A stretch of DNA of 61,940 bases. Origin: Psammoneis japonica. Lineage: Eukaryota. Position 1 is the stretch's first letter. Every line of letters starts with the position of its first letter. The notes beneath the pieces were generated by a model. It was not told the origin of the DNA. It searched no databases and saw only the letters and a list, made by a program, of their open reading frames with translations. A program made the position numbers and the translations under genes. Shown in pieces: positions 19,790-51,474 of the stretch. Where the stretch lies: assembly GCA_008632985.1 (NCBI GenBank), contig QPGO01000149.1, forward strand, positions 124,001 through 185,940. Reading direction: 5' to 3'.

Positions 19790-20170
19790 CGCGACGGCTA
19801 CAGCATGTTTTGTTGTCGCTGTATCTTTGCTCTTGTTTTCTGGGATGAGAGTGATGAGGCATCGCTTCGCGTTTCGCGTTGCGTGTGTGTGTGTGTGCGT
19901 GCGAACTGTGAGTGCGTGCAACAATGCCACGTCGTCGGACTGACCGCCCCACGTGTTCCGGAGGAATGACAGACGGTAAAGTACGGTACAACATTGTTGT
20001 TGATCGATCGCTCGATAGATCTACGCGAAGGGGTGTGGGGCAGGCAGGAAGTGTTGAGGATGAAGCTTAAGAATCAACGAGTGGTCGCATTTGATGTTTC
20101 AAAAGTCCTTGTAAACTTAAACGTACCACTCTTTCTCCACGGTATCGCCCTCTGCCCCATTGCAGCATGC

Positions 20171-20848: not shown

Positions 20849-21466
20849 GGGGACGGTTGAAGGTGATACACTTTCCGTGAATGGCGTTCCTGGGCTCCTG
20901 CGTGTACTATATCACCACAAAAATGTTGTGATGTGAGCGAAGGGGCAAGAAGGGTCGTCGTTCCGTGCCGTCGCACTCCCAACTGGGAGGTCTGTAAGTG
21001 GTACGGCGTGTCAGGTGCGTTGTCCGGCGTTCACCGATTCCATCGACGGGAGAAAACGCGCGAGAAAAGTTTGGGAAAGGCGGGCTTCTGTGGGGCGTGG
21101 CACAAATTCTACGCAAAGGAGCAGATGGCGGGAACACCCCCCATGATGTTCCATAAAATATATTCAGTCATTAGGATATATCAAAATTTGATGACGAAAG
21201 CATCGCAAAAAAAGATTTTCGCGCGGGAAACAGTGTAGATTCTACGCAATCCTGGTACCAAAAATTTAGCGATAACGGTGTGGCATCCGTTGAAGCCGTG
21301 ATGGGTTGTTCTGTTTACACATCATCACGTTGTTTACGTTCTTGCTCATGGGCGAAAGCCGTCATTAGAACAACAAAACAACACGCCATACAAGCAGCAG
21401 CAAAACGCTTTCTGTAGTTTATCCGATTGAGAAAAAGGCAGCTCGAAAAAAATCCAGTACAAAAAG

Positions 21467-30780: not shown

Positions 30781-31182
30781 GCTACCATTACACACTACCA
30801 GCCACTTTTTTAAAGAAGGATCTAACTAAGACTATAGATCTGTAACTATTTTGTACAGAATGCTGAATTGTATCTGACTCATCCTTCGCAGAAGCTACAG
30901 TATTGTGTGTCCGGACCGCGAAACACCGCGAAGTGCGAGGCGCGAACGCATCAGTCATGCGAATCGATGCGAAACGGGACTCAAATTTTGGAAAATTTCG
31001 CAGAGAGCGTTCGCGCGAAGCGGAGCTGACAGCTTGAAAGAAGAGCTGACGATGAGAGCCGTAGCAAAAAGAGGGTGTACTGTATCCAAACTTAGCTCTC
31101 ACTTCGCTCTCCCCTTGTTTCATCTCCCGTCGATCGCTTCTCTTTGCACTAAAGGTTTTCACATAGGTTATTTGTTTCAATC

Positions 31183-33771
31183 ATGATGGCGGAGCGCACC
31201 CCAACCGCGAGCACGAATCAGCAGCAAAAGATGTCAAGCGCACCGACAGTTTCTGCCGACAGTGAATCCTCAAGAGCATCGATATCAAAAGGTGCTCAAG
31301 CCAAACGAGATCAGCATAAGCGTCGCGGTGATTCCGAATTTCGGTCCAGCAATTACGAACAGGCCTCCAAGGAGTACACGTTGGCCTTGTCTGTCGATCC
31401 AAACAACCCTCTCATTTTGTCGAACCGTAGTGCGGCCTTTATGCAAATGGGTCAGCCTCAAAAGGCACTCGAGGATGCCAGAATCTGTATTTTGCTTGAC
31501 AACAAATCTGCACGTGGGTATGCTAGGCTAGCAGCTGCGCACCATGCCTTGAAACAATGGGAGCCAGCAATAGAGGCTTATGAGAAGACCTTGCAGAAAA
31601 GCCCAGACAATACAGTAGCTCAGCGAGACTTGAAAAAATGTCGCGAGCAACTGGCTAAACAGAAAAGCGGAGGGTTCGCCGCCACAGCTACAGCAAATAA
31701 CAGTAATGTCAATGAGCAGAAAGTCGAGTCAGAACCGAAAACAAAGGAGAAAGTCAAACCAGAACCAGAAAAGGCAGATGCGTCGAAGCAACACACGGCT
31801 TCTCAAATTACTCCGATACCTGAGGCAGAAGCAGTCGCGGCGACTGATTCGACTTTGTTATCTACTAATAATGATCACAAACAGGCACCAAAAAACGTAT
31901 CACCTACCCGAGACGATGATGATTCCCTCAAACCCAAGCCCACAGTCAAGACACAAGCGGCGACTTCACCTGCCGCCGTGGTAACTCCCGAATCGACGCC
32001 ATCAACACCAAGTTCTACAAAGGTCGAGAGACAGAGTGTAAACAGCTCTTTGTCGGAGCCCAAGCCCGCTTCACCAGGGCTCCAAGTCAAACATCTCGAC
32101 TCAACACCTTCAACACCCAGCACTGAAAAGGACGGGAGAGGTGTAAACAGCTCGTTTTCAACATCCACTCCCGTTTCTCCAGGGATTAGCGCCAATACTC
32201 CTGCAACGCCGATAACCCCTGTTTTGGCCTCTCGTAGGAATACGGGTTTATCAGAACTCTCGAAACAATTGCGATTGTTGCAGGCCACAAACGAGGCACA
32301 GAATAATGAGATTGATCGACTGGAACGACAACTACGCATTCTGGCAGAGCTCAAGGGTATATCCGTCGATGACTTGAGAAGGGCGTTGCATATTGCCTGT
32401 GAGGATGAGGCCCACGCCGAGCTGCGAAACCAAGTTGCTATTCTACGGTCACGACTTGAAGCTTCCACTCTTGCTAGTTCCAAAAAGAGCAAAGATTCAT
32501 TTGAAAAGGAAGCTACAGACAAGGCCATGGCGAATATGCAGTTGCGTGTTGGAGAACTCGAAGAAGTAGCAGAGACGTTGCGAGGAGAGATTCACGAATT
32601 GTACCAAGACTTGTGTGAGGAGAAGTCTAAATCGACAAAGCTTCAACATACGTGTGATCAACAAAAGAAGAAGCTGGACGAATTGACACGAGAAGCCTTG
32701 GTAGTCAAGGAGAACAATGAAGCGCAATCTCAATGGAGTCTTTCACAGCAGCAGCTAGTTGTAAGAGGACAAACCGACAGCGTTGACAAGGAAGCACACG
32801 AAGCGGAGGTCCGACAAGCGCGGCTCGAAACGCAGCTGGAACGGGACAGAGCCAATCTTTTGGAGCAACAGACTCACGCGAGAGAAAACGAGGTGAAGTT
32901 GCTCAACGACCAATACAAGAGTCGCTTTCAAGTACAGGACCAACGAATTATGGATTTGGAGCAGCAGCTTTCTTCGCTTTACGCAGCTTTTGAAATGGTT
33001 GAAGAGGAACATGAGGGAGTGCACGAGCGACACAGAACGCTTACTAGCAATCTTCAGGAGGCCGATGAGCAGGTGGTCCGTCAGTTGACCAAAATGGAGA
33101 GTAGTCCGGGCCTTTCCGCGACGAATGATGACCCAGTAGTTTATGCAACACCTGTTCCCACCCATGCTGTTGCAACTCCGGAGCAAACAAGGTCAGTAGT
33201 GACAGAGACATATTCACCATCGACACATTCGCTAAGCAGTAGTCACGCCACACCATTCCCATCACCACCACTGCACCACCATCGGAGCTTTCGCAACAAG
33301 AAATCGCCCGTGAAGCAGAACTCGATCGTTGCGCTTGACTCGCAGCATGTAATTTCTGGCTGGTTGCTAAAACGTGACAAGAATATTCTAAAAGGTGCAT
33401 GGAAGAAGAGGTATTTCATTCTTCACGGAAGCAATGGTAACTACCAAATGTCTTACAGTGAAAAGCCAAAGGAAAAGGTGAAGGGAACTGTTGGCTACAT
33501 CACGACCGGCCTGTCTACGGTGTCTCCAAGCATTGGATTTCCAAAGCGACCGTTTGTCTTTGTGCTTCGTTCGAACCCACAAGATTTGCATGCCCCCGTC
33601 TTTCATGCTGCGGCTGAAGATTGTGAGGAGTATGATCGGTGGATATCTGCCCTCACTCTTGTCACCACCGGCAAGGACAGTACATATTCTGTGGGAGCAA
33701 GATCCGCGCAGGAGCAGGAAGCGGCCGATCACGAAGTGGCTCTTCGAATGCAAATGGAGTACATGGATTAA
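31183..33771 (+). CDS. TPR + coiled-coil + PH domain protein, paralogue 3
   Basis: 862 aa with TPRs, LSELSKQLRLLQ..LKGISVDDLRRAL..ACEDEAHAEL, and PH VISGWLLKRD..AWKKRYFIL..YDRWISAL. Confidence 0.9.
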   Translation: MMAERTPTASTNQQQKMSSAPTVSADSESSRASISKGAQAKRDQHKRRGDSEFRSSNYEQASKEYTLALSVDPNNPLILSNRSAAFMQMGQPQKALEDARICILLDNKSARGYARLAAAHHALKQWEPAIEAYEKTLQKSPDNTVAQRDLKKCREQLAKQKSGGFAATATANNSNVNEQKVESEPKTKEKVKPEPEKADASKQHTASQITPIPEAEAVAATDSTLLSTNNDHKQAPKNVSPTRDDDDSLKPKPTVKTQAATSPAAVVTPESTPSTPSSTKVERQSVNSSLSEPKPASPGLQVKHLDSTPSTPSTEKDGRGVNSSFSTSTPVSPGISANTPATPITPVLASRRNTGLSELSKQLRLLQATNEAQNNEIDRLERQLRILAELKGISVDDLRRALHIACEDEAHAELRNQVAILRSRLEASTLASSKKSKDSFEKEATDKAMANMQLRVGELEEVAETLRGEIHELYQDLCEEKSKSTKLQHTCDQQKKKLDELTREALVVKENNEAQSQWSLSQQQLVVRGQTDSVDKEAHEAEVRQARLETQLERDRANLLEQQTHARENEVKLLNDQYKSRFQVQDQRIMDLEQQLSSLYAAFEMVEEEHEGVHERHRTLTSNLQEADEQVVRQLTKMESSPGLSATNDDPVVYATPVPTHAVATPEQTRSVVTETYSPSTHSLSSSHATPFPSPPLHHHRSFRNKKSPVKQNSIVALDSQHVISGWLLKRDKNILKGAWKKRYFILHGSNGNYQMSYSEKPKEKVKGTVGYITTGLSTVSPSIGFPKRPFVFVLRSNPQDLHAPVFHAAAEDCEEYDRWISALTLVTTGKDSTYSVGARSAQEQEAADHEVALRMQMEYMD

Positions 33772-34826
33772 AAGGAAATGTTTGCGTGCGCTTTTTAGAG
33801 ATTGCTAAATTAGTGGGCTACCGGCATTGCAAGGCTTTACTTCGATTCTTTTTCGTTCAGCTATGCTCGTTTGCTATCCTGTGCCCTGAAGCTTCACGCA
33901 CTCATATTCGAAAGGAATGCGATGCTTGCCCTTGGGTTGACAAAATTGTGGAAACTCGGGATTGGTCACTCCCGATTGTTTCTTGCGCAGACAAACCAAA
34001 GAAATAACGGGTGGAGCGATTTCTTCTATCGAAGTAGGTATTCATGACTGTTTTGCTTTCTTTAGCATCGTGCAAATTGGAAGTCTCGCTTGTGTATGAG
34101 AAAATCAATTTCAAATTGATCGGACAACGTGCCACGGGTAGCGTGCACGAGTTCTCGCAAAAATGATGCGCACTAGCTAGACCTATGTTGCTACTGTGGG
34201 TTTTCAGCATCTTGATACTGGGATAGCTGGGGGTGTAGTGGCGACTAATTGAATTACGATTGCACAATTCCAACTGTGTGAATCAGCCGCCTCGAACGCC
34301 GAAACAAAACCCATCCCTTCCTTGTTGTAGCGAAAAAGGATTAAGGCTGGATCGATGTTTAGCACTATTTTTTTAAATAGCTCGTGATTTTCGAATTTCC
34401 CCGTACTTCGCCCGTGTTATTTTGCGAAGCCTCTGAGCACCCCTGAACACATATTATGAGTGTGTCCAGCCCCCATCAGGGCTGTTAGACCTTTATGTGA
34501 ACTACACATATTCACCTTCCAACGCCAATTATCGTACTTGCCTCGGTTGTTATATGCGATAAATCGCCATTTTCCGCCAAAATCGGACTGTTACGGTAGA
34601 TAAGCCACAACTTTCCAGGAAATGCCGATAATTGGCGTTTGACCGGCTATAGACATATCTACAGTCGTTAAGCTACACATCGCCCATGGTCGCAATCGTC
34701 ATATGTGCATTCTATGTTGTCTTACAAACAGACAAAGTTCGACCTATCGCTGATTTTTTTTTTGGCGAACGCGCGCATTATTAGTACGACAAATCCGGGT
34801 TATTTTTAAATGTTTACGAGCTCTAA

Positions 34827-35259
34827 TGCAGCATGCCTCGCTACTGGACAACACGGCGAGACCGTGCATAAGCCTCTTGTACGTGGCAACGTAGTGTTGT
34901 TAACACGTACCTGGGAAGCACGACCACAGGAGGGCGTGGCTCTAGGTCTCAGGCAATTCCAGAAGGATGCCAAGAGAGCACCCGTGTGAAGCACACCAGC
35001 CCGTCGTCTGGCCCACGATGGTGGCGTGATTCCACACGATGACATCACTCGTGCATGGCATGTGATGGCTTGATTCGCACGATCCACAACGCGAACGCAC
35101 GATCGATTTGATGCGATCCAAATGTGAACGAACAGGGATTTGGCAAGATTCCCTGTTCGCACGATCCCATTTTCTCCACTCTAAACTGGCTCACAATTTT
35201 CACAACGACAAAGTCGCAACACATCTTCTTTTTTCAGCGCCTGGTGCATGCACAGGGCA
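34827..35259 (+). repeat. Gypsy 5' LTR
   Basis: Direct repeat of 39226-39658, same length. Confidence 0.92.
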
Positions 35260-35320
35260 CAGCAACATTGCTCCCGCATGTTGTGCGAGGTGTCGAAATC
35301 TACAGAAACGAAACTACGAA

Positions 35321-38300
35321 ATGTTGGCAGGACCGACAAATCTTAAAACGACCATGAAGAAGCGGATTGAGCCGCCGATTCTGTTCGCACGGACGGAGAA
35401 GAAAGAGCTGCAGCAGGGCGAGTGCCAGACGTTCAAGTTGCATGACAACCCCACTGATCCGGACAGTCCAACGCACGAGATGGGCATCCCGTGCCTTTCT
35501 GCGGCTACATGCGAGACACTCCCAATCTTTCTGCGCAACGTGGATCGCGTGCACGAAGGACAAAACATCACGACCGGGCCAGCGAAATTTGCCCTTGTGC
35601 GTGACCTGCTGCAGGGCGATGCTCTGACATCATTTGACAATGCCGCTGACAAGCAGGCATCCCAAACCAACGCTGCGCACGCAGCATGCATCGCGAAGCT
35701 AAAGGAAAGTGTCTTCCCACACAGGGCGGTGCCATTGCAGAAGCGTCATCTGCGGCACTTCATGCGCAAGCCCGCAGAGGTTTCCACTCGTGACTGCGTT
35801 GTGAGGGCTGTTGAAATTAATGGCCATGTCTCTCAGTTTCCACCCGTGACGGAGGATGGAGAAACACCGGCACCATTGCCCAATGACGAACCATGCGACA
35901 TGTTCGAGTGCAGCGTGCCGAACGCATGGCAGAAGTTCATGACGCTACAGAATTTTGACCCGTTGGCGCATGCTGTCGCCGAATTTATGCAGTTCTGCGA
36001 GCGCACCGAGCAGGTCGAGCTTGCCGAAGGTAACCGCAACCAACACATTGAGGTTCCACGCAAGCGGGGACGTAGAACGGACAATCCTGAGTCGTTGATC
36101 ACGACCCAACGGAACACCCAGAAGTCGTGTGTGCTGCACGGGATTAACTGTGGACATCACACGGAGGATTGCCGTCAGCTCAAGCACCACGTGAAACGTG
36201 TCAAGACTGGACATTCCAACAACGGAGGCGGCAAGCCCAATGTAAAACCTCGGAATGAGGAAGATGTCAATGCTCTCATCGGATCGAAGGTCGAGGAGTT
36301 CTTTGCCAATGCTCAGAAAAAGCGCAAGGCACGCGAGGAGGAAATTGATCACTTCCGCGACCTCAATTTAAGTGATTCCGAAGACTCGGACACTTGCCGA
36401 CACGATGCAGGCAATTTTAACACATTGGATGAATGCACAAATGAACAACTGAACTGCCATCGTGCACGTGTTGCAGGCCAATCCCGCAAACAAGTTAAAA
36501 AGACTCATCTTGCTCCAATCTTGTTTGTGGCTGTGAATGCCAAACATGGCAAGGGCAAGACTCAAACCATTGAGGCACTGCCAGACAGTGGCGCCAGCAG
36601 CACTCTACTCGACAGTCAATGCTGCAAACGTCTGCGAAGCCATTCAACGGCTGAGACAAACTGGGCTGCGGCAGCAGGCTCGTTCAGCACGTCCAACGAC
36701 TGTGCCACGCTCGTCCGTGTGAAGCACCTCGTGCGTACGAAGCTACGCTGCATAAAGAAGTAGAATGCCTGGCACGCATCGGTGTTCTCAAACGCATTGA
36801 CCGATCCCAATGGGCAGCTCCATCATTTGTCATGCCGAAGAAAGATTTGATGGCACGCTTTGTTGATGATTTCAGAGAGCTGAACAAACGGATCAAGCGA
36901 TTGCCTCATCCGATTCCTCACATCCAAGATGTGCTGCTTGAGCTTGAAGGCTTTGTGTGGGCTGCGTCGCTGGATTTAAACATGGGCCATTGTCACATCC
37001 GATTGGATGCTGACAGCAAGAAGCTCTGCATGCTCATCTTCCCGTGGGGCAAGCATGAGATGCAGGCATTGCCCATGGGATCATGCAATTCGCCAGACAT
37101 TTTCCAAGAACGCATGTCAGGCTTGTTTGAAGATCTGTCGTTCGTTCGAACGCACTTAGATGACCTTCTCGTCGTGACGAAAGGCACCTGTGAAGATCAC
37201 CTCAACAAACTTGAAGAAGCTTCATTGAGGGTCCAGAAAGCAGGACTAAAAGTTAACGCAACTGAATCTCATTTCTGTCAAACCCAATTAGAGTGCTTGG
37301 GTTGTCTGGCCAACAGAGACGGAATGCGACCAATGCCCAACAAAGTCGACGCCATTAAGCGAATCGCGACCCCAACCAATGAACGCGACCTGCGTTCATT
37401 TGTTGGCATGGTGAACCACTGCCGCGACACGTGGATTGGACGTTCTGAAGTCTTGGCTCCGCTAACATGACTCGCAAGCGAGACTGTTGAGTGGGAGTGG
37501 ACGTCCGTTGAAAACGAGGCGTTCGAAACCGTCAAACGGGTGACATTGGATGATGTTTTATCATCACATCCTGATTTTAACAAACCCTTTGAGGTGCATG
37601 CCGATGCCTCTAAATGTCAATTGGGAGCAGTTGCATCCCAAGATGACAAACCCATCGCCTTTCACAGCAGAAAGCTCAACAGTGTGCAATCAAATTGCAC
37701 AACAACGGAGAGAGAATCACTCGCCATTGTGGAGACGTTGAAAGAATTTCGAACGATTCTCCTTGGTCATCGTGCAATTACATGTGCTGATCATAAAAAT
37801 CTTACGTGCAAAGCATTCAATGCCGAGCGCGTCATGCGCTGGCGGCCAACATGCGAAGAACACGGTCCCGAATTACGCCATGTTAAGGGCACCCATGACC
37901 CAGTCGCTGACGCTCTTAGTCGCCTTCGACTGGCACCCAGCTTGCCTTCCGAGGCTAATCCGGATGCAAAAGACACTCCATCGAGTCGTCCTTTGCATGA
38001 AGCCTTTAATGCAGACGCTCAAGATGAGCCATCTCTGCCTGTCAGCTTCAAGCGCATTCAAAAAGCACAACAAAAGGACAAGCGCCCACTCTCACGAGCC
38101 AAGGACTCGTCCGACTGCTCCATTCGCGCGCATCGTGGGGGAGGGTCATCACGACAGTTAATCTGTCATGAGGACAAAATCGCAGTGCCACAGTCATTGC
38201 AGGTTCCACTGACTGAATGGTGCCACGAGACACTGTGTCATCCAGGTGAGACACGCACGGAAACATCTGTTGCCCAGCACTTCCATTGGCCCAGCATGAG

Positions 38301-39270
38301 GTCTACGGTGCATTCTACGTGCGTTGGGTGCGATCGATGCCAGAAGACAAAACGCCGAACGCAGCGTTGTGGGAAGCTGCCAGAAAAGGTCGCAGAGACA
38401 ATTCCATGGGAGACTCTGTGCATGGATGTGATGGGGCCACACAAAATTCAAAGACGCGGAAAGGACACCTTGCAATTGTGGGCAGTCACAATGATTGACC
38501 CAGCAACCGGGTGGTTCGAGATTAAAGAAGTGTCTGCGAAACGCGCAGACGTCGCAGCAAACGTCGTGGAACAAACGTGGCTGTGCAGATGTCCGTGGCC
38601 AACCCAGGCAGTTCATGACCGTGGGACAGAATTTGTGGCAGAATTTAGCCAGATGATTAAAAATGACTGTGGGATTTTGAAGAAACCCATGAGTGAACGG
38701 AATCCACAGGCAAATGCCACAGTGGAACGTGCACACCAGACACTTGGCAACATGGTGCGTTCCTTTTCAGCACAGGACATGGAACTGGATGAAGATGACC
38801 CATGGAGTGGCATCCTCTCCGCAGTGGCCTTCGCTGTTAGAGCTGCGGTGCATGCGACCACGCGTGCAAGTCCCATGCAATTGGTCTTCGGACGCGATGC
38901 GGTTTTGTCCATTGCCCATCGTGCCAAGTGGAAGCACACAGAAACCAGAAAGCAGAAGCTTGTCCACTTAAACAACAAGCGTGAAAATCAGAAACGCAAG
39001 GAGTGTCAACATGCCGCAGGGCAATTGGCACTTGTCAAACAGGAACAATCCTCTAAATGCGGTTCTGACAGCCACGCAGGACCCGCCAGAGTTGTCCGTG
39101 TGTGTGACAACGGCATGTTGCGCATCCAGAACGGAGCACTGACAGACACGTGTGATCTGCGGCAGATTGTGCCCTGTCACCAGCAAGACATTCTGTCACT
39201 TAACGGCCCTGATCATGGGGGAGTGTGCAGCATGCCTCGCCACTGGACAACACGGCGAGACCGTGCATGA
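35321..39270 (+). pseudogene. Gypsy gag-pol: gag, protease, RT, RNase H, integrase; apparent deletion/frameshift near 36710-36760, TGA at 37468
   Basis: CVLHGINCGHHTEDC; ALPDSGAS; WAAPSF..DFRELNK; LDLNMG; HLDD; ADAS; DHKNL; H..LCHPG..CDRCQ; DVMGP; HDRGTEF; PQANATVER. Confidence 0.93.
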
Positions 39271-39658
39271 GCCTCTTGTGCATGGCAACGTGGTGTTGTC
39301 AACACGCACCTGGGAAGCACGACCACAGGAGGGCGTGGCTCCAGGTCTCAGGCAATTCCAGAAGGATGCCAAGAGAGCATCCGTGTGAAGCACACTGGCC
39401 CGTCATCTGGCCCACGATGGCAGCGTGATTCCACACGATGACATCACTCGTGCATGGCGCATGATGGCTTGATTCGCACGATCCACAATGCGAACGCACG
39501 ATCGATTTGATGCGATCCAAATGTGAACGAACAGGGATTTGGCAAGATTCCCTGTTCGCACGATCCCATTTTCTCTGCTCTAAACCAGCTCACAATTTTC
39601 ACAACGACAAAGTCACAACACATCTTCTTTTTTCAGCGCCCAGTGCACACACAGGGCA
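39226..39658 (+). repeat. Gypsy 3' LTR
   Basis: Direct repeat of 34827-35259. Confidence 0.92.
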
Positions 39659-39697
39659 CTGAATAAAATCGACCGCTGAACAACGATCCATCCTCAA

Positions 39698-41585
39698 GCA
39701 CTGCCATCCTTCTTTTACAAGTTTCCTGCCTTGGGCGATGACAGTCAAGTGCGGATTGCTCAGATGGCAATGCACCATCTCTGCAGCACAGGCCCGTGGG
39801 GGCACGAAGAATCTCGGTAGATGAAAGGTCTCCCCATCTTCGTCTTCACTCTGCACCAGTCAGGATGTGAGCCAGCAACCTTGAGCTTTGATCCCCACAC
39901 TGCAAAAGGAAACCGTCTCTCGACAAGTGGAGTTTCTCTCATTTTTGAAGCCCCAGTGTGGATTGGTCTGTTCGCCTGCAACCTGCCCACATCTGCAAGG
40001 GCCAACAATTTTCTGGTTGGAAATCGCGGCATTCGTCAATTGCAGTGCTTGCGTGTTCGCCACTCTGTGCTGCTTGTTGGACCTTTTCAAAAATCTCTCC
40101 ATTTGCACACTGCCAAAATGCCTTTGTGCCATGAAAGGTTGGGCCATGGCAGCTTGTTGGTTGGTCCTCTCCTTGTTTGGTCGGTTGTCACGATGATGGA
40201 CAAACCAGCAGTGGTCAGCAGTGCCAGATTTGGTCTGCAATCTTGAATCAGTGAAGCACGTTGGGGAAGGAAGGACAGTTGCTTCATCTGAGACCTCGTT
40301 GATTGTGTTGGCTCCGGCACGCCAACACCCTCCCCTGATCAAAGCATCGGTTTGATCACAAAAAAAGAAGAGCCGCACAAATGGAGCAAATGATGCTGTC
40401 ATCAGAAAAACACATCCACAAATGCCGTGCCACAGTCCACCGGACAATCCGCTGCAAGGCAATGCAGCACAAGAAACCCTCCCCCAGTTGGAAGAAGAAG
40501 AGCAAGGGTCGTCATTGGACAGCTTCGACAAATCCAATGTTGGGTCATCAAACCAGGGAGCAGAACAACAAACAGCAAGGAAAGACGGCTTGGGTCATCA
40601 TCAGAAAGGGTCAAGACATCCAAGGAGAGGTTGGTCATCCACGTGACGGGGTGCGGGGCATCCTCGTTTGGGTCGTCGTCGGGCAGCTTGGATGGATCCA
40701 AAGTCACGGCAGAACCAAACCTGAGAGAAAAGCCAGCTGGGGCAATGGAAGAACCTTCAAAGCCAAGTCCATCAATCCAACCAAAGGAATGCAGTGGCAA
40801 CACAGCATTTGCAATGGGATGTAGCTGCAAAGACTGCAATCCAGGGGAAAATGGGTCGTCGTCGGGGAGTTTGGAAGGATCCAACGTGGCGTCTGTTCCA
40901 AAACAAAGAGACACGTCAGCATCATTCCCAGAAGCAGGAGCATCGCAAACACAACCGTCAACCCAATCAAAAGGATGCAAAGGGAAAGCAAAGGCCCTGG
41001 TTGATCTCTCAGTGGCAGAGAACCAGATCGACAAGATGCGGCAGGGCTGCACGGGCAACCCGCATCAGGGCATCGCTCAGGGGGCTGCACAGGCAAAATG
41101 GACTCATGCGCCACCTTGGAAGCTGCTTTGTCAATGTCCATGTCGATGACAAAGGGATCAGAAGTGGGAGAGGCAAGCTGTTCAAGCAGAAAATGCCGCC
41201 ACCAGTCAACATGCGAGCGGAGGCAAGGAAGTGACTCAAAAGAGCAGGGGGGCAAGAGCTCCTCTAGAACCGTCCTGGGATCCTGACTTGAAAACTTTGC
41301 AAACAGGAAAGTGTGCAGATAGAACGCATTCCAAGCATTGTCACAATCAGGCAGCTCAAAATTCTCTGGTTTCGTCAGCTCCAGAGCCAGTTGGAAAGAA
41401 TCTACCGGCGCCATGGGGTGACAGAAAAGAGCTCCCGACTGCTTGTCTGCAGAGAGCATTGACCGGCAAGAATCACATCCACAGCTGCTGGCACATTTCA
41501 CAAGAAGGAGAGAGGAAGGCTGAGAGGCAGGATCATCATCAGCTATCCCGGAGAGGTCATCACTGGTGCCGTAAGAGAGCGTCAT
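39698..41585 (-). pseudogene. Disrupted gene-like sequence with five D-x-x-x-(L/I)-x-(D/N)DDP motifs; 3' part probably continues at 34344 toward ~33900
   Basis: Minus-strand frames give DLSGIADDDP, DPSKLPDDDP x2, DVLTLSDDDP and DLSKLSNDDP across frameshifts. The frame reads through the empty TTAA site (KEGWQC-LILFRYNKEG). Confidence 0.5.
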
Positions 41586-42002
41586 GGTTCGCCGGGATAA
41601 AACAGTATCAACACGTAGAACTTGTACTAGAGGTCACGTAGAAGATGTCCGATTCGGAGGATGAAGGCTGGCAAGTCTTCGTAAGGCTTACGAGCATCAA
41701 CAACCACCGGCAACGGAGTAAAAAATAGCCAATATCAACAGAATGGATGCTTGTCAATGAATCACTGCAAAAAAAGCAGCAAAGCCTTGATGGATCGAAG
41801 GGTGCAGTGCCGTAAGTCGATTCGTCGCCGTGGTTGGATCCTGCGTAGAAACAATGCTGGTTCCCACGTAGAAAAAAACAAAGTCGTTGAAAAATAGTCG
41901 AAGTGGTTGGTGGCCAACGGGCTCTTCCATAAGACGAGTTGAGGTGCTCGAATGTAACGCATTGACGCTATGTGTCCCAAATAACGCAGAGGAGGCATTA
42001 AA

Positions 42003-42043
42003 GGTATCATTCAAGGGTTGATGAACAAAGACCCCGGACTTCT
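42003..42043 (+). repeat. 41-bp exact copy of 57378-57418
   Basis: GGTATCATTCAAGGGTTGATGAACAAAGACCCCGGACTTCT occurs at both positions. Confidence 0.92.
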
Positions 42044-42194
42044 GCAGTGCAGAGTTGCAGCGATGGAATGGAGAAGGAAGTAACTCAGGTTACAGCTTCC
42101 ACGTTGGAAACGGTACGGGTTCTTCACACAATGCGAACATAACACCCTAGCATGCTCAACCAAAGATAGATCGTCGATGAATCGTTCAAAATCA

Positions 42195-43754
42195 TCAAAG
42201 TTTTAAGATAGACTTCAGCGTTTCTACCTGATCTTGAAGCAGCCTATCATCATCCGTGAACTCAGAACGACCGAAATCAATAATCTTGGCGCGTTTCGGA
42301 TCCTCACTGCTCTGTACAATGTTTCGGAGATCCAGATCGTTGTGCACAAGACCAGCTCCACTCAAAAGACGTAAACTTTCTAATGCCGATACTCGAAGCT
42401 CAAGAGAAATGTTTTCGAGACCAATGTCCTCGAAACTAGGGCCTTCCTTTCCCAAGCACAACAAAGGAACTCCGAGATGGGTGCTGAATCCATAGAACTT
42501 AGCAATGGCGTCCTTTACATTGGAGTTCTGAGACAGCTTCTGGTATGCTGACGCCTCGTTTGTCATTTCTTCGGCAACATGTTCTGCCCGAGTATTGTAC
42601 TGCATTTTGATAAGGACAGAAGGGTTTTTGTTGCTGGAAAGAAGCTTGACATTGTCATTGTAATCGACAAGTTCACAGTCCCACATATAGACACGAGAAG
42701 CGAATCCAATCGCGTCTTCAGAGCAGGCCGATGTTGCTCCTGTCTCACTCTTTCCATCGTCAAGTTTCTTTCTGCTTTTATTTGGGAGACTGTTCTTATG
42801 TGTCGATTCTGGTGGGTCTCTTGTTTTCTTCTTCCGGTCTTTGTCGGGACTTTCTTCCAGACGACGGGCTTTTACAGCGGAAGCAGGGTGGCAAGGGGTC
42901 TCCTCTAGTTTGAAGTCACGAAACTCTATAATGGTCTTGATTGCCTGAAGCACTGATGGCGAGGTTTCTTCCTTCCGAAACGGGCGAGAGATCTTGAGCG
43001 TACCATTAGAATCGCGGCAGCAAAACCACCAAACTTCGTACAGATTGATCACGCCGTACCTAAGCCTCGAAGAAAGCATTTGACCGTAGACTTGACGAAT
43101 CAAGTGAAAAACTTTCTTTTTTCCTTTTGTCCACTCTTTTGGAAGAGGAGATTTGCTCTCCATATTTTCAGCCGTGAAGCCATTAGGATATTGAAATAGA
43201 GTTGTTAGCACTCTCGTACCGTCGCCGCGTAGGAGAAAGCGGAATTTCCAGAAAGGCTTGGTTTCGAAAGTACATAAGGGAACGGTGTTTTCAATGACAT
43301 GTCTCGACACTGCCTGGCGGCTCACTGGAGATTTATACTCAGACGGAGCAGATATTATCTCTTGCCCTTCTCGTCGTAGCGCAACCAAGTCTGGCTGTGA
43401 CAACGTGTATACATCGTTTTTCACAATGTCAAAGTCAGCCTGTACTATTCGAAATACCTTGAGTAACGCCCGTGTATTGTCTGTCACATCTTCTTCTCTC
43501 TCGACATAATCAAGCCCAGTTTGAAGGATGCTTGCACCAACATTGGTGTCAATTATGCGGGTGTTCTCGGGTCGTTGTGATGCCTCTTGAATCTTGGTTG
43601 GAAACTCGGGCCACTCTTCAACAGAGATGGGAGTGTGGGAATGAGCAGCCCACGTCGTTGATCCCTTTCCTTGCCTCTGTAATGAGCCATGTAAGTAAGT
43701 TAGATTCGGCAGTGCAACGTTAATATGGTCCCATACGCTTTGACGAGACGCCAT
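42195..43754 (-). CDS. Restriction-endonuclease-like domain fused to a protein-kinase-like domain (Crinkler-type REase+kinase architecture)
   Basis: 519 aa. QPDLV..CTFETK..IRQVYGQM..LRYGVI..WWF, then VLIKM..NEASAY..LVHNDLDLRNIV..KIIDFGRS. Confidence 0.78.
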   Translation of the reverse strand: MASRQSVWDHINVALPNLTYLHGSLQRQGKGSTTWAAHSHTPISVEEWPEFPTKIQEASQRPENTRIIDTNVGASILQTGLDYVEREEDVTDNTRALLKVFRIVQADFDIVKNDVYTLSQPDLVALRREGQEIISAPSEYKSPVSRQAVSRHVIENTVPLCTFETKPFWKFRFLLRGDGTRVLTTLFQYPNGFTAENMESKSPLPKEWTKGKKKVFHLIRQVYGQMLSSRLRYGVINLYEVWWFCCRDSNGTLKISRPFRKEETSPSVLQAIKTIIEFRDFKLEETPCHPASAVKARRLEESPDKDRKKKTRDPPESTHKNSLPNKSRKKLDDGKSETGATSACSEDAIGFASRVYMWDCELVDYNDNVKLLSSNKNPSVLIKMQYNTRAEHVAEEMTNEASAYQKLSQNSNVKDAIAKFYGFSTHLGVPLLCLGKEGPSFEDIGLENISLELRVSALESLRLLSGAGLVHNDLDLRNIVQSSEDPKRAKIIDFGRSEFTDDDRLLQDQVETLKSILKL

Positions 43755-44288
43755 GGCTTCACCGTCACTGTCGCGTACTTTTAGGTGAAAGCAAGACGAT
43801 TTGATTTGATTTTTCAGGATCGATTTTCTATCGGACCCCGCCAGAAGTTATCCGTACAAATGCCATGATGCCATATGGCATTTCTTTCTACGCCGGACCT
43901 GGTACTGATTCTACGGAATGCCATAAAGCGCGTGAAAAAGGCGTGCCGGCGTTGATGATTCGTGTGAATGAGATAGGCACATGTACTTTATGACCGAGTG
44001 TGCCCTCTCTGATGTATGTATGTTAACTAACGTATTTTAGATATACCGGGAACCGTTAGGTTTGCCCCACATCAGCGATGATGGGGTCTCTCCTCGGTTC
44101 TCGCACAACTTTTATCAAGTCATCTCAAGCTAGATCTTGCACTGCAATTGCAGTTGTTGTCATGGCTTGTTCATTGCATCATCTGTTTTATGACAACGCG
44201 AAGAGTGTTGTCGAGAAGAGAGAAAATTTGTTTGCGAGCTCGTGCAGAAAATTTCATTCAAAATCGATCAGAAGCGCAGCGCAACTTT

Positions 44289-44564
44289 TGACAGGATTTG
44301 AACAGGATTTGGGTGCGCGCGAAATGTCACGCACTGTTTAGTTTACCGTGCACAGTTTTGTGTGCTTTAGTTCCGCGCGTTCGCGCGCGATGCAGTTTGC
44401 TTTCGAGCCACAAGGCTCACAAGAACAATGACAGCAGCCCGATTGTGCCGACTCACACGTCTTTCGGCTCCTGTGACGGTCTCTGAGCGGAGACTCATCT
44501 GCTGTTTAGACAGCAGTGAGGAGTTGTTGTTTGAATTCTTGCCATTTGCCGTCAATTTCTGTCA
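44289..44564 (+). repeat. Copia 5' LTR
   Basis: Direct repeat of 51016-51291. Confidence 0.95.
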
Positions 44565-45500
44565 GATCAACAGTCTTGCTCATTGTCAACCCATTGAGCA
44601 ACCGCCATCGTCGTCGTTGATTTGCCGACGACGCTGTTTCAATTCTGCGTGGATCTCCGCATGTGTTCTACATGCATCGGCAAGTCCATGCGCATTCAAC
44701 ACCAGGCACTGGCAGGAAGTTAACGTCACCGTCAAGTCTCCTCACCACTGGATGTCTGGATTGACCACACTGCCTTTCATCGCTGAAGACATGCGTTCAA
44801 CGGTCACACCCAAGTCTGTCCTTGATCCTCATCCCTTGATTTGCCCATTCAACGGTTAACGGTCAAGAACCCTGCATGTTCAAGGATCTTCGTCGCTGAA
44901 GACATGTGTGTGTGCACATCTTCATGGCCAAGGACTTGCACCCACTCTTTGGACTGCGGCTTTGCTGCCACTCTGCAAGCACGCCGAGTCCACTGCACCT
45001 GATCTAGCCTGGACTGCTGGTGCTCCACAGTTCTGCTGGGTCCACGAGGACGACTGTGAGAGCAAGCAGCCGTGATTGCAGCCTGCGTTGGGGTGAGGGT
45101 GTTTTCCCGTGTTTGTTCGTTTGTCCACAGTGCCCAACGCCTGCGTCAACTGGCCAGCCTGATCGGGAAATCCAACCGACATGTGATGGGAATGGTTCAG
45201 GGGTCTTGTCCACCTCTGGTCAGCTTGCCTGCAGGGGTTTACAACCCGCTGCTCTGCTCGCAAGCAACCCAAAGCGCCACCAGCTGCGGGTTCGGACGTG
45301 CCGGCACAACTCTGCGGACCGGATGGGAAGTTTAGCACTCAACAACGAACGGGATGGCACAGCCCGGCGTCTTCTGATTTTAAGGCAGTTCAAGATTTCA
45401 AGTCAAGTCCATTTCAAGTCAAGTCCATTCTCACCCAAGTTTCAAGTCCACCTTCGCTTCCCAACAAGAATTGCTTGTCCTGGCACCACTTTTGTCTGCC

Positions 45501-48500
45501 ATGGTTCTCACTCATCAGCAACAAACCGATGGTTTCGAGCACATTGTTGGAACCGTGCTTGCCCAAGGTGCTGGGAGCCCTCTTCGTTTGGCTTTGACCC
45601 AAGACAGCACGGACTCGCATCAAGAAATGTTCACGTTCATGCCGTCCCAAATCGACTCGCTTGAGTGCGACAATGGCACTGATGTGATCCCTTTGCCCCG
45701 CGGTTGTAAGAACATGTTAGCAGCTCTGACCAGTCTGTGCGTTGTCAAAGCACACAAAGGTCTTGACGTTGCCAATGACTTCTCGTTGTTCACGCATGAC
45801 GAGTTCCTTGCCTGCTGCCTCAGCCCCGACTGCATGTCTTCTGTGTCCATCGGCAGTTCGCCCCTTGCACCTCCGCATGTCACCAACCCGACCAAGGCAC
45901 GCGACCCGGTGCGAGACTTCAAGTGAGGCATCAAGCGTGACCCCACCGCTTTCACGGCTCTCAAATCCAACAAGCAGTGGCACACTTGGCACACCTCACT
46001 TGTGGCACAAGCCCGTGCCCAAGACGTCGAGTGCATTCTAGACTCGTCGTACAAACCGACCAGCCCCGAAGACAAACTGCTCTTTGCTGAACAGCAAAAG
46101 TGCATGTTCGCCGTCTTCGAACGCATCCTTCTCACCGACAAGGGCAAGGCTCTCATTTGCGAAAATGTGGGGTCTTCTGATGCCCAGACCGTCTGCCGTG
46201 CCTTGTCTGAGCATGCGCTCGCCTCCACCTGCGCATCTGTCGAGTCCTCCACCTTGCTCACGCACCTTGCCACCGCACGTCTTGGTGATGGCACTTGGAA
46301 AGGTCCAACCCATGGGTTCATCCTTCATTGGCAAGATCAGTTGCGCAAGTGCAAGGCACTCATCCCGGCCACTGACCACTTCTCTGAAGGACAGAAGTGC
46401 GTCATGCTCGAGAATGCCGCACATCCTGTCGAGGAACTCCGTGCTGTCAAGAACCAAGCTGATCAGCATCGCACACAGAGTGGCAAGAGCCTCACATGCG
46501 ATCAACACTGTGGCTCACTCCTCTCCGCGGTGGCTCAATGCAACAGCACGTTTCAACCCAAGATGACACCTCAAGCTCCCCGACGTGCCACACACGCACA
46601 CGACGTCTGCTCCGAGGAACCGTCCGATGATGTGTTCTGTGACATTGACAGCGACATTGACGTCCTTCAGGCTGATGCTGCCTGCACCCGTGGTCCCAGC
46701 CTCACCGGTGACCAATGGAAACGTCTCCCTCCCGACCACCAACGGATTTGGGATTCGTCGCCCCATTCCTCCAAGGCGATCATCCTTGAGCATTCTCGTC
46801 CGCCTCCCCGCAACCCGCGAGCCAGCAACTGCCATGAGTCCGTTGCGGCCAACCTTCACGACCAACGCCTTGGGAGTGACGGTGCTGTCAACTTGTCCAA
46901 CACGACTCCTGCTGACTCTGGTGACCCCACTCCAAATGTGGGTGCCACTTCGGATGATCCCATCCTGGCGCACCTCACCAAGCGCAAGCCACTGCCACCC
47001 GGTGATCTGCAACGTCTGTTGTCTCCTAACCAAGCCCCCAACGCCAGTCGACCGGGGCCATCCGCCGCTCCCTCTGCCTCGCCAGCTCCTGCCGATGACA
47101 TGGAACTTGACGGCCGCACTTGCCGCCGCGTCAATGACCACAATGTCATTTGCTCTGCCTCTGCTCATCGCTCCACACGCACTGGTGCTCTGGTTGATCG
47201 TGGGGCCAACGGCGGCATTGCTGGCGACGACGTTCGCGTCATTGCACGCACCTCTCGCCAAGTCGACGTTCAGGGCATTGACGACCATCAATTGGTGGAC
47301 ATCCCTGTTGTCACCGCTGGTGCCGTCATTGAGACCCAGCGTGGTCCCGTCATCGCCATCCTCCATCAGCACGCATGCACGGGAAAGGGCAAGACCATTC
47401 ATTCCTGCGGCCAGCTCGAATGGCACAAACAGGATGTCAACGATCGCTCTGTCAAGGTGCCCAACGGCTTGCAATGCATTGCCACTCCTGATGGCTGTGT
47501 CATCCCCATTGACATCAAGGGTGGCCTGCCTCATGTTGCTGTGCGACCTTGCACTGACGCCGAATGGGACACCCTGCCCCATGTCATCCTCACCGGTGAT
47601 GACACATGGGATCCTTCCGTCCTCGATCACTCTGTCACTGATGACGACCAGTGGTGCGACGCGATCTCTGACCCACAGGACGATCCCACTGCCAACCTGT
47701 TTGACGAATGCGGCAACTGCCGTCATCATGTCGTTGTCAACAAGACCATCATGTCCGCTTCCTTGTCTGCCGATCACGCGTCCGCCCTCGATGATCACCT
47801 CATTCCGAACGACGACGTGTTCCACGAGTGTCATCTGCACGCGATTGACCCCAAGGACGACGACGTTCCGCCCCCGGAGCGCACTGTGCAGCCCAAGGAC
47901 CCCCCCTTCGAGTCTCTTCGGCCTTGCTTTGGCTTCCCACCTGCCGACACGGTCCGTCGTACTTTTGACTGCACCGCGCAGTGCGCCCGCATGCCCGCCG
48001 GCACACACCTTAGGAAGGCCCACAAATCACCCAACCCCGCCCTTAATGTGCACCGCCGCAACGAGCCCATCGCCACTGACACCGTTCACGCCGACACCCC
48101 GGCCGTCGACTCTGGTTGCACCAGCGCCCAACTGTTTGTTGGCACCGAGTCTGCTGTCACTGACGTCTGCGGCACCAAGACGGACAAGGAGTTTGTCAAC
48201 ACACTTGAGGATCAGATCCGTGAGCGTGGTGCCCCATCCAAACTCATTGGCGACCATGCTCAAGTTGAGATCAGCAACAAGGTGCTCGGGATCCTGCGAG
48301 CCCTCTTCATCTCCAGCTGGCAAAGTGAGCCTCACCAGCAACACCAAAACTTTGCCGAGCATTGACACCAGACCGTGAAGCACATGGCGAACACTGTCAT
48401 GGATCGTTTCGGTTCACCTGCCCACACATGGCTGCTGGTGCTCATGCACGTGTGCTTCACACTCAACCATGCAGCGTCCCCACGTCTCCACTGGCGCACG

Positions 48501-51015
48501 CCCCTCGAGACTCTCACTGGCTCCACCCCAGACATCAGCCCATTGCTTCACTTTCACTGGTGGGAACCCGTGTGCTTCCACCTCGATGACTCCGATTGGC
48601 CGTCCGAATCCCGTGAGTTGCGTGGACGCTTTGTTGGCATTGCTGAGCACGTCGGCCACCAGATGACCTTCAAGATTCTCTCTGACGAGACTCAGAAGAT
48701 CCGCCATGACGACAACCCCGTCGATTCTCCTGATGGGGAGATCAGGACACCCAAGATGCCCGTTTTCGATCCGCAAGACATCATCGGACGCACCTTCCTC
48801 ATGCAGCCACAAGAGGACGGACAACGCCACAGAGCTCGCATCGTCAAGGCCGTCAAAGACCACGAATGGAAAGTGAACGGCAATCCCGAGCTCACTAAGT
48901 TCGTCTGCTCTGTCAACAACGACGAATGCGAGGAAGTCCTTGCCTGCAACGACATCATGAATCACATTGAGCAAGAAGGCGAAGACACTGCTGTTTGGAA
49001 ATTTCGACGCATTGTGTCACACGAAGGACCTCTGAAGCCTCATGACCCAACCTGGAAAGGCTCAAGCTACAACATTGTGCTTGAATGGGAAAGTGGGGAG
49101 ATCACGTCCAAGCCTCTTGCCATCATCGCCAAGGACGATCCCATCACCTGCGCCATCTGTGCACGAGAGAACGGACTTCTCGACACTGATGGCTGGAAGC
49201 AGTTCCGCACCATCGCGAGGCGCCAGAAGAAGCCATTCTGCATGGCCAACCAAGCCAAGCTTCGCTCCTTCTGCACTGCACCTCGCTGCAAGTGCGGGTG
49301 CGAAGTTCCCCGGAACTACAAACACGCCATGTCACCAGACGAATGCAACAGCAACCGCAAATGGGGAGACGCAACTAATCTCGAGATGGACCAACTAGAG
49401 GAATGTGAAGTCTTCCATGACTGTGGGCCCTTCGAGTCTTCCACTCCTCCTGCGGGACACAAGAAGATCCGAGTGCACCCAGCGCACGACGTGAAACACG
49501 ACGGTCACCACAAGGCACGACTCGTGGCCGATGGGCACCTCACGGACGCACCCATCAACAGTGTCCACTCCGGAGCAGTCTCCCTCCGTGGCCTTCGGCT
49601 GATGATTTTCCTGGCCGAACTCAACGAGTTGGAGACATGGGCCACCGACATTGGCAATGCCTGCCTTGAAGCCACCACCAAGGAGAAGCTCTACATTGTA
49701 GCCGGACCCGAATTTGGCAAACTCGAAGGACACATCCTTGTCATCCACAAGGCCCTGCATGGACTGCGCAGCTCCGGTCTCCGCTGGCACGAGCGCTTCG
49801 CCGACTGCCTGCGAGCTGAAGGCTTCTTCCCCTGCCGCGCCGAACCCGACATTTGGATGCGCAGGAACGGCAACCACTGTGAATGCATTGCCGTTTATGT
49901 GGATGACCTCGCCATTGCCATGAAGGACCCTCAATCTTTCGTCGACACTCTCACAGAAAAGCACAAGTTCAAGCTCAAGGGTGCGGGACCCATTGAGTTC
50001 CATCTGGGCTGCGACTTTTCCCGGGATCCCGACGGCACCTTGTGCCTGTCTCCGTGCAAGTGCATTGAGCGCATGGTCGACAGCTGCACCCAACTGTTTG
50101 GGGAGAAACCTGCCACCAACGCCCTGTCACCTCTGGAGAAGGGTGACCACCCCGAACTGGACACTTCCGAACTGCTGGGGCCCGATGGCATTCACAAGTT
50201 CCAGTCTCTTGTTGGTTCACTCCAATGGGCAGTGTCCCTTGGTCGAATTGACATTGCCACGGCCGTCATGTCACTCTCTAGCTTCCGAGCTGCGCCCCGT
50301 CAAGGCCACTTGGATCATGCCAAACGCGTCTGTGGGCACCTCTCCAAGATGCGACACGGCGCTCTCCGCATTTGCACGGAAGAGCCCGACTGTTCGGATC
50401 TCCCTGCTCCGGCCCATGAATGGATGCATTCCGTGTACGGCGAAGCAGAAGAGATGATCCGGAAGGACGCTCCACCACCCCTTGGCAAGTTCGTCACTGC
50501 CACCCACTATGTTGATGCAAACTTGCACCATTGCATGCTCACCGGACGCTCTGTCATGGGAATGCTCCACTTCCTCAACAAATTCCCGGCTGATTGGTTC
50601 TCTAAGAAACAAGCCACCGTGGAGACTGCGACCTGCGGGTCTGAATTTGTTGCCGCAAGGACTTGTGTCGAGCAGATTGTCAACCTGCGCATCACCCTGC
50701 GCCACCTTGGCGTCCCGATCCGCAATGTCAGTTGCATGTTCGGTGACAACAAGTCGGTTGTAGACAGTGCCACCATCCTGCACTCCAAGTTACACAAGCG
50801 ACACACCGCACTGTCGTTCCACCGTGTGCATGAGGCAATTGCCTCTGGTTGCCTTGAGCTCCACTTCATCGAAGGCTCCCGCAACCCTGCTGACATTCTC
50901 AGCAAGCATTGGGGTCACTCCCAAGTCTGGGACCTTCTCCGCCCCCTCATGTTCTGGAACTTCATTCCATCCAAAGTCGAATCTGTTTCTGTGGCTCCTC
51001 AAGCAAACTGGGGAG
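45501..51015 (+). pseudogene. Copia polyprotein with in-frame TGA at 45924 and 48363
   Basis: DFK*GIKRD; LVDRGANGG protease; IATDT..GDHAQVE..SEPHQQHQNFAE integrase; KARLVADG, DIGNA, YVDD RT; YVDA, GSEFVA, GDNKSV, NPADILSK RNase H. Confidence 0.93.
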
Positions 51016-51291
51016 TGACAGGATTTGAACAGGATTTGGGTGCGCGCAAAATGTCGCGCGCTGTTTAGTTTGCCGCGCACAGTTTTGTGTGCTTCAGTTC
51101 CGCGCGTTCGCGCGCGATGCAGTTTGCTTTCGAGCCACAAGGCTCACAAGAATGACAACAGCAGCCTGATCGTGCCGACTTACACGTCTTTTGGCTCCTG
51201 CAACGGTCTCTGAGCGGAGACTCATCTGCCATTTAGACAGCAGCAAGGAGTTGTTGTTTGAATTCTTGCCATTTGCCATCAATTTCTGTCA
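51016..51291 (+). repeat. Copia 3' LTR
   Basis: Direct repeat of 44289-44564. Confidence 0.95.
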
Positions 51292-51474
51292 ACTTTACTC
51301 GTGAAATTGGCGATGCGGAGCAGCGTTTTTTTGAACTCAAAGCACGTGTTGCTGCCATTGAATTTGTTCTTGTTTGGTCATTGGTTGTTCTTGTTGTGTG
51401 GATCAAATGGGAACGCCTTGTTTCGTTTGTCTTGTGGGTTGTTGATCATTTGATCGCTGAAATTGTTCATCGCC

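Follow-up and report, generated by a model that had tools for sequence, protein, structure and literature searches.

Sister long terminal repeats point to TpA-directed hypermutation of an integrated gypsy retrotransposon in a probable diatom

The gypsy element and its insertion site

The window analyzed here is a 61,940-nucleotide stretch of DNA from Psammoneis japonica (GenBank assembly GCA_008632985.1, contig QPGO01000149.1, positions 124,001 to 185,940 of the forward strand), in which a 4.8-kb element (34827-39659) is bounded by two direct repeats. Judging from its long terminal repeats (LTRs), its target-site duplication, and the order of its protease, reverse transcriptase (RT), RNase H, and integrase, all of which fit, this element is a full-length Ty3/gypsy LTR retrotransposon. 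Our comparison of its two LTRs, its coding interior, and its surroundings makes it very probable that the integrated chromosomal copy has been hypermutated from TpA to CpA or TpG, on either strand.

The 5' LTR (34827-35259) and the 3' LTR (39226-39658), both on the plus strand, are each 433 bp long, start with TG, and end with CA, and the repeat pair 34827-35260 and 39226-39659 gave a gap-free alignment of 434 bp with 93.8% identity. Between them, and likewise on the plus strand, lie a gag-protease frame (35066-36760) with a DSGA motif and a weak aspartyl-protease match (Pfam Asp_protease_2, E = 0.0025, which is under the curated cut-off), the RT (36655-37467; Pfam RVT_1, E = 3.8e-15), and an RNase H-integrase frame (37471-39267; Pfam RT_RNaseH_2, RT_RNaseH, and Integrase_H2C2), the homologues of which bear PF00665. 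The 565 residues of the gag-protease frame include one tyrosine, with 30 histidines and 23 cysteines, and the 599 residues of the RNase H-integrase frame include no tyrosine at all. Directly before the 3' LTR, a purine run that we read as GGGGGAG (39217-39223, plus strand) is a candidate for the polypurine tract.

The target-site duplication, which was recognized from the sequence together with an empty-site joint, is 4 bp long and reads CTAA on the left (34823-34826, plus strand) and CTGA on the right (39659-39662, plus strand), so that three of the four bases are shared and the sole mismatch is a TA-to-TG change in the right copy. For the empty site, contigs of two public DNA runs (X1 and X2) from one sample were placed on positions 34001-54000 at 80% likeness, and three contigs of X1 and one of X2 were found to pass straight from 34825 to 39662, with the joint reading CTAA and then ATAAAA. 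This joint means that the element sits in repetitive DNA, other copies of which are uninterrupted at this point, and the target duplication and empty-site joints together identify the two LTRs as sisters from one insertion. Across the gypsy element, the summed contig depth is 13,000-23,000, as compared with ~58 for single-copy contigs, and thus the gypsy family is abundant, though depth does not equal copy number. Scanning the window for Rfam families and for tRNA genes gave no match to either, and an LTR pattern scan of metagenome contigs and of viral contigs gave 0 matches in either set.

Sister-LTR differences and the direction of change

In the alignment of the LTR pair, there are 27 differing positions and all 27 are transitions, which agrees with the original prediction for this DNA. 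All seven of the TAs that it had described as retained by the 5' LTR within its first ~120 bp could be located (34842, 34869, 34880, 34892, 34901, 34908, and 34943; LTR positions 16-117), and these are found in the 5' LTR only. Their counterparts in the 3' LTR are altered to CA at four sites (39241, 39300, 39307, and 39342) and to TG at three (39268, 39279, and 39291), and here too the alignment confirmed what had been claimed. Further into the LTRs (positions 171-423), a CA in one repeat faces a TG in the other at seven reciprocal sites in all (34997, 35022, 35061, 35177, 35187, 35242, and 35249), among which are the CCAG/CTGG, GTGG/GCAG, and CCAC/CTGC pairs that had been noticed earlier. Another five sites set CpG against CpA or TpG, the CG being retained four times by the 5' LTR and once by the 3' LTR, and the sole remaining difference is a C/T at 34981. 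Counted by origin, 21 of the 27 positions are TpA-derived and one is derived from neither TpA nor CpG. A single TA, in a CTAA context at 35182 and 39581, persists in both LTRs, and it is the only one that the 3' LTR has.

Each reciprocal CA/TG site represents two independent changes of one TA or one CG, and the original prediction had left room for a CG origin. This part did not survive the calculation. Given 26 CpGs that persist in the two LTRs alike and five that were lost singly, CpG decay is expected to yield 0.24 double losses and 0.12 reciprocal sites, as against the seven observed (P = 6e-11), and from this we take the ancestors to have been TA. Per LTR, the losses amount to ~9% of the CpGs versus ~90% of the TpAs past position 120 and, by these counts, the TpA process far outpaces both CpG decay and background substitution. 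The raw LTR divergence of 6.2% drops to 1.4% when the CpG sites are kept and to 0.23% when TpA and CpG sites are both set aside. As had been anticipated, dating by LTR divergence would therefore overestimate the age of the insertion, with an inflation of ~4- to 27-fold.

The coding interior also indicates the direction of change. For RNase H-integrase, the alignment was made with the best 40 of 120 relatives listed (46-59% identity), and for RT the same list supplied 40 relatives with a length of 930 residues or more. We regarded a column as a conserved tyrosine column when at least 60% of the homologues have tyrosine there. Not one of the 18 such columns in RNase H-integrase, or of the ten in RT, keeps its tyrosine in this element. 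Instead, the 28 columns are occupied by 14 cysteines, 11 histidines, and three other residues (for RNase H-integrase, ten cysteines, seven histidines, and one alanine), and even the catalytic YxDD of the RT is HLDD here, with the histidine codon CAC at 37153. Altogether 96 conserved columns of RNase H-integrase are changed, and 41 of these fit one TpA change and three fit a CpG loss. The conserved tryptophans (12/12), glycines (22/22), and prolines (20/21) are retained. Moreover, the 41 TpA-explained columns divide into 18 changes of TA to CA and 23 of TA to TG, which bears out the claim that both strands had been altered, and this near-equality argues that an editor of RNA or cDNA is not the main source.

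Other copies of the family could also be consulted through the contig depth. At least six interior sites that are CA or TG here have TA in 14-90% of the family summed depth; among the variants listed, these are 36061, 36160, 36238, 36266, 36268, and 36347. The reverse case, with TA here and CA in 99-100% of the family depth, occurs at 36243 and 37956 among the same variants. On the whole, these sequence comparisons support a change from TA to CA or TG that affected the two strands about equally and that each copy acquired separately once it had integrated. The sister LTRs, the reciprocal sites, the direction in the interior, and the strand balance all concur with the earlier proposal that the changes were made after insertion, in chromosomal DNA, and separately for each copy.

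Depleted domains, their edges, and sequence context

The observed/expected ratio of TA is 0.0-0.5 over 35000-41400 as against ~0.5-0.8 in the host genes, and in the depleted gypsy domain the ratio of CA+TG is 1.4-1.6, with CpG at ~1.0 throughout the gypsy element. In the window as a whole, the depleted domains (9000-11030, 34960-41400, 44400-55300, and 60300-61940) contain 124 TAs in 21,014 bp (5.9 per kb), while the rest has 1342 TAs in 37,703 bp (35.6 per kb). Host genes are spared, and their reading frames keep 2-4% tyrosine.

On its left side, the gypsy element adjoins a multi-copy repeat (34440-34826; depth 1600-4400, 19-23 contigs) that is not TpA-depleted. This flank has 32 TAs in 387 bp, including five of ATAT, and the observed/expected ratios for 34400-34799 are 0.94-1.11 for TA, 0.99-1.24 for CA, and 0.86-1.25 for TG. 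Being repeated yet unmutated, it indicates that repetition is insufficient for targeting. The 5' LTR then opens with a spared segment (34827-34943, plus strand), where the seven TAs altered in the 3' LTR are all retained, and this is followed by a step (34944-34996, plus strand) that bounds the TpA-depleted domain on its left and runs from the last kept TA at 34943 to the first reciprocal site at 34997. Whereas TAs recur every ~12-14 bp over 34400-34943, the next one is met at 35182. For the 5' LTR, the numbers of TAs kept and changed are 7 and 0 at positions 1-120 versus 1 and 7 at positions 121-433 (Fisher p = 0.0014), and for positions 1-120 in the 5' versus the 3' LTR we obtained p = 0.0006 (Fisher). 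In addition, a count of seven or more TAs was reached by 0 of 2057 windows of 120 bp in the depleted domains (maximum 5, mean 0.70). The original prediction was thus right to place an edge against unmutated DNA, but the gradual fade it described at this edge gave way to a step no longer than 54 bp in which no graded zone is resolved. Position and not sequence sets the limits of the mutated domain, which starts between 5' LTR positions 117 and 171. As a detail of the left flank repeat, positions 34444-34445 are TG here and CA in most other copies.

At the opposite end, mutation in the 3' LTR reaches to <10 bp from its end and the duplication is altered as well, and two TAs persist in the 57 bp to the right of the altered duplication. 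The low-copy right flank (39700-41450; summed depth 144-196) is both TpA- and CpG-depleted, with six TAs in 39660-41400 and a CpG observed/expected ratio of 0.4-0.65, and a Pfam search of its reading frames found no protein family. The right edge of the domain, at ~41400-41550, is less sharp than the left.

A second intact element, of the Ty1/copia type (44289-51291, plus strand; LTRs at 44289-44564 and 51016-51291; Pfam RVT_2), could be compared in the same manner. Its LTRs of 276 bp have 21 differences, again all transitions (21/21), and two TAs lost from the 3' LTR are retained in the 5' LTR, at positions 56 and 80. There are five reciprocal sites (positions 138-229), for which CpG decay predicts 0.5 (P = 1.7e-4). 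Against 30 homologues, chosen for long coverage from 150 listed, the copia element keeps tyrosine in 2 of 17 conserved columns, with eight cysteines and four histidines among the others, and its 54 changed columns include 16 that fit a TpA change and eight that fit a CpG loss. This element sits inside another repeat, as evident from several empty-site joints that lead from 44283/44284 to 51297-51301, and the part of that repeat at 51292-55420 carries a gypsy-type RT/RNase H (53305-54822), though an LTR search for this third element found none. Here, the depleted domain stops sharply at 55421, where 773 bp without a TA are followed by 10 TAs in ~100 bp.

As for the sequence context, we took the density of TA-centered tetranucleotides in the depleted domains relative to normal DNA. 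Highest are TTAA (0.71) and CTAA/TTAG (0.54), next come CTAC (0.21), CTAG (0.20), GTAA (0.19), GTAC (0.10), ATAA (0.08), and ATAG (0.05), and the relative density is 0 for both ATAT (0 in depleted domains versus 112 in normal DNA) and ATAC/GTAT (0 versus 196). In other words, with R for purine and Y for pyrimidine, R-TA-Y is wiped out and Y-TA-R mostly persists in the depleted domains, and the TAs common to both LTRs, in the gypsy and copia elements alike, are all CTAA/TTAG. Such loss of R-TA-Y and survival of Y-TA-R may be the fingerprint of an enzyme. Strand choice matched the baseline with respect to the 3' neighbour (enrichment 0.92-1.08 for 80 changes with inferred direction), and the strand having the sole purine before T was the changed strand in 19 of 50 sites (p = 0.12).

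The effect of the domain can also be followed in a duplicated fragment. Of its two copies, 40204-40303 lies in a depleted domain and 57097-57196 in normal DNA, and they show 12 differences in 100 bases, including five sites where CA or TG is set against TA in the normal domain and one reciprocal site, while no difference is found in the next matching stretch, 42003-42043 versus 57378-57418, which is not part of the domain. The fragment lies within the reading frame 56898-57575, and its copy near 40 kb holds a 1.7-kb insert (40304-42002), the left 1.1 kb of which is depleted and the right 0.5 kb normal.

The two outermost depleted domains, 9000-11030 and 60300-61940, adjoin runs of N and have observed/expected ratios of 0.03-0.24 for TpA, 0.13-0.35 for CpG, and 1.8-2.1 for CA+TG. 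Pfam searches of their reading frames found no meaningful protein family, and they are probably older mobile-element relics with added CpG decay. Another old relic may be present at 800-2600, which is partly TpA-depleted (observed/expected 0.27-0.37) and has tyrosine-free frames at 814-1506, 1562-1990, and 2077-2607. With the loss of TAA and TAG stops, long frames occur on both strands and in several frames (e.g., 45927-51065 and 51454-53106), and those in the depleted domains are almost free of tyrosine and have histidine and cysteine in excess.

Proposed explanation, alternatives, and related systems

The explanation we favor is that a gypsy copy integrated into another repeat of a nuclear genome, with a 4-bp duplication of CTAA, and was then subjected to a process that converts TpA to CpA or TpG by A:T to G:C transition on either strand. 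This hypermutation went nearly to saturation, separately on each LTR and on each family copy. The chemistry may be an enzymatic base modification within TpA, and the leading candidate would be deamination of adenine to hypoxanthine, as proposed for Bigelowiella natans. Since TpA is its own complement, thymine could alternatively be the modified base. Targeting would probably occur through a feature in cis, either a chromatin domain or a transcription unit starting in the 5' LTR. The opposite fates of identical LTR sequence argue against recognition by homology only, whether by pairing of the kind seen in repeat-induced point mutation (RIP) or by small RNAs guided solely by sequence. The domain could follow a transcription unit beginning in the 5' LTR, or else the edge of a chromatin domain could lie about one nucleosome inside the element. 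A broader and decidedly speculative reading, to which we give little credence, joins these points into an old defence of the SAR group (stramenopiles, alveolates, and Rhizaria). In that case, a mutator common to diatoms and chlorarachniophytes, preferring R-TA-Y, would be recruited in cis by the element's transcription unit or chromatin domain and not by homology. It would start at or just past the LTR promoter and spill over, such that the first 120-170 bp of the 5' LTR, being untranscribed, are left intact, the same stretch in the 3' LTR is destroyed, and adjacent low-copy DNA is also reached.

Several points weigh against hypermutation in the form just given. The altered strand cannot be predicted from the 3' neighbour or from the base before T (80-93 changes), and at the seven 5' LTR sites the comparison covers this LTR pair only. 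The 5' edge effect was tested in only two intact elements, with the copia case amounting to two sites, and the copia 3' LTR for its part retains a TA at 51181 that is lost in the 5' LTR. Moreover, the copia left flank is itself partly depleted, and the 3' ends of both elements adjoin other depleted DNA, so that sparing may, but need not, be a property of 5' ends alone. The support throughout is that of sequence comparison.

Among the alternatives, one concerns the seven TAs themselves, which could have been gained in the 5' LTR through a RIP-like change of C to T at CpA and TpG that came from the TA-rich flank and covered the first 120 bp, so that CA and TG in the 3' LTR would be the original state. 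For these seven sites, the LTR pair alone gives no direction, and a TA-rich left flank (observed/expected 0.94-1.11 over 34400-34799) would suit such a process, but the same flank lacks any depletion of CpA or TpG (CA 0.99-1.24, TG 0.86-1.25). Wherever direction can be assigned, i.e., in the pol tyrosine columns, the copia element, and the target duplication, it is the opposite one. The reciprocal sites also imply at least seven TAs at LTR positions 171-423 at integration, and by hand arithmetic on the eight visible sites an ancestor with no TA in the first 120 bp is only ~0.075 likely. Since TA gain would further require a second and opposing process, of which there is no other sign in the window, we hold it to be very improbable. 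Gene conversion or recombination, in which an unmutated family copy would later have overwritten the first 120-170 bp of the 5' LTR, accords with the sharp boundary, and homology would run out at the element edge, a natural end for a conversion tract. Unmutated donors do exist, as seen from the TA in 14-90% of family depth at six or more interior sites. Nonetheless, the pattern is shared by both of the two intact elements (the copia TAs being those at positions 56 and 80), and there is no mark of a foreign tract, the sole non-TpA difference in positions 1-120 being one CpG loss in the 3' LTR, and for these reasons we think this account unlikely.

Editing before integration, whether A to I in RNA by an ADAR-like enzyme or by a deaminase acting on single-stranded cDNA, would draw on the established preference of ADAR for a U before the edited A (also mentioned in the Discussion of bioRxiv 10.64898/2026.01.13.699255) and on the fact that retroelements are known targets of editing enzymes. 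Such editing can hardly be credited here, as the strands were changed about equally (18 CA and 23 TG), 21 TpA-derived positions, the reciprocal sites among them, distinguish LTRs that were made from one template, and the host-derived target duplication and low-copy flank were altered too. There is as little to commend ordinary decay of methylated CpG, with CG going to TG or CA, as the source of the CA/TG excess and of the reciprocal sites. Five LTR differences are indeed CpG losses, 8 of the 54 changed copia columns fit this type of loss, and the domains 9000-11030 and 60300-61940 are also depleted in CpG (0.13-0.35). However, CpG observed/expected stays at ~1.0 all along the gypsy element, the two LTRs still share 26 CpGs where the seven reciprocal sites face an expectation of 0.12, and CpG decay cannot remove tyrosine codons.

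In the literature searched, there is a single and very recent description of a process of this kind, from a different lineage and with different targets, this being the TpA hypermutation of integrated viral DNA in the chlorarachniophyte B. natans (Mettrop et al., bioRxiv 10.64898/2026.01.13.699255). According to that text, two integrated-virus regions in B. natans mutation-accumulation lines mutate ~1000-fold faster than the remaining genome. Transitions of A to G and T to C account for 230 of the 231 mutations in these regions and are reported to be at TpA, the TpA-depleted genes are enriched in reverse transcriptase and DDE domains, and the enzyme proposed is an ADAT2-like deaminase (bioRxiv 10.64898/2026.01.13.699255). 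The two cases, to the extent that the preprint describes the first, are alike in the change of TpA to CpA or TpG on both strands, in the kilobase domains of foreign DNA that are affected, and in the depletion of TpA with enrichment of CpA+TpG. They differ in their targets, which here are nearly saturated LTR retrotransposons and in B. natans are viral regions, and in the TA share of dinucleotides (3.6% in normal DNA here versus the 6.0% given for B. natans). Whereas the B. natans rate was measured in mutation-accumulation lines, the process in the present window is known from sequence alone. In the main text of the preprint (bioRxiv 10.64898/2026.01.13.699255), there is no mention of LTRs, retrotransposons, boundaries or edges, sequence context, trinucleotides, or diatoms. 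The literature searched, which did not cover subscription journals, yielded no other account of TpA-targeted hypermutation and none for diatoms, and the accessible text of Maumus et al. 2009 (PMC2806351) does not mention RIP, dinucleotides, deamination, or hypermutation.

With respect to better known systems, the process resembles RIP of ascomycete fungi in that dinucleotide-specific transitions would be made in transposon DNA after integration and on both strands, ruining coding capacity and inflating LTR divergence. Yet RIP turns CpA into TpA, thereby raising TpA and AT, while here TpA is lost and GC goes up, and RIP recognizes duplicated sequence, while here identical LTR sequence is spared or changed by position. 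Fungal RIP was considered as a candidate and rejected, given the TpA ratio of 0.0-0.5 and the CA+TG ratio of 1.4-1.6 in the elements and the unmutated state of the multi-copy flank. The APOBEC3 and ADAR enzymes of animals offer a likeness in their deaminase-type transitions, preferred neighbour context, and inactivation of retroelements. They act before integration on single-stranded cDNA or RNA, with strand bias, and leave the LTRs alike, and none of this holds here. Deamination of 5-methylcytosine at CpG likewise makes TpG and CpA in transposon domains and has a minor part here (5 of the 27 LTR differences), but its target is another dinucleotide, and in this DNA it proceeds much more slowly.

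What is added by the present case are retrotransposon targets in a probable diatom, the proof from sister LTRs, the step within an LTR, and the preference among tetranucleotides. Should diatom retrotransposons be subject to the same process, then TpA defence is not restricted to one lineage, and diatom genetic tools could help to locate the enzyme, for which the tetranucleotide preference could serve as a fingerprint in a tractable diatom. Comparing sister LTRs provides a simple proof, obtained from sequence, of action on chromosomal DNA after integration, and the step within the 5' LTR limits models of target choice to those based on position and not on sequence identity. In practical terms, LTR dating in such genomes would carry the ~4- to 27-fold inflation, repeat libraries built on similarity will split families, and relics that are free of tyrosine and poor in stops yield long spurious frames in all six frames, thus becoming a trap for gene prediction.

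Unlike in B. natans, the host genes in the window resemble diatom genes, and they are long uninterrupted frames. Three of them, on the plus strand at 3400-5679, 11801-14098, and 31153-33768, are paralogues with TPR repeats and a C-terminal PH domain, and their named relatives are mostly diatom proteins. For one TPR-PH protein and a JmjC host protein, the named relatives are almost all from diatoms, the one exception being a transcriptome record of another protist, and the JmjC protein has up to 48% identity to its diatom relatives over nearly its full length. The diatoms concerned are Nitzschia, Pseudo-nitzschia, Cylindrotheca, Fragilaria, Fistulifera, Epithemia, Cyclotella, Attheya, and a Bacillariaceae metagenome-assembled genome. 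Going by the names of these homologues, the host is probably a diatom.

The same signature of histidine or cysteine in place of tyrosine seems to occur in other environmental sequences, going by the copia-pol homologues of 48366-51065. Among 150 representatives listed, at least four from ENA and JGI metagenome assemblies are poor in tyrosine (0-1.9%; P0361, P0402, P0440, and P0338). Four metagenome loci were found for P0361 at only 35-39% identity, all with normal TA content. At the conserved tyrosine columns, P0361 itself has eight cysteines, three histidines, one valine, and no tyrosine, and two control copia-pol relatives retain tyrosine in 7 of 8 and 10 of 12 columns.

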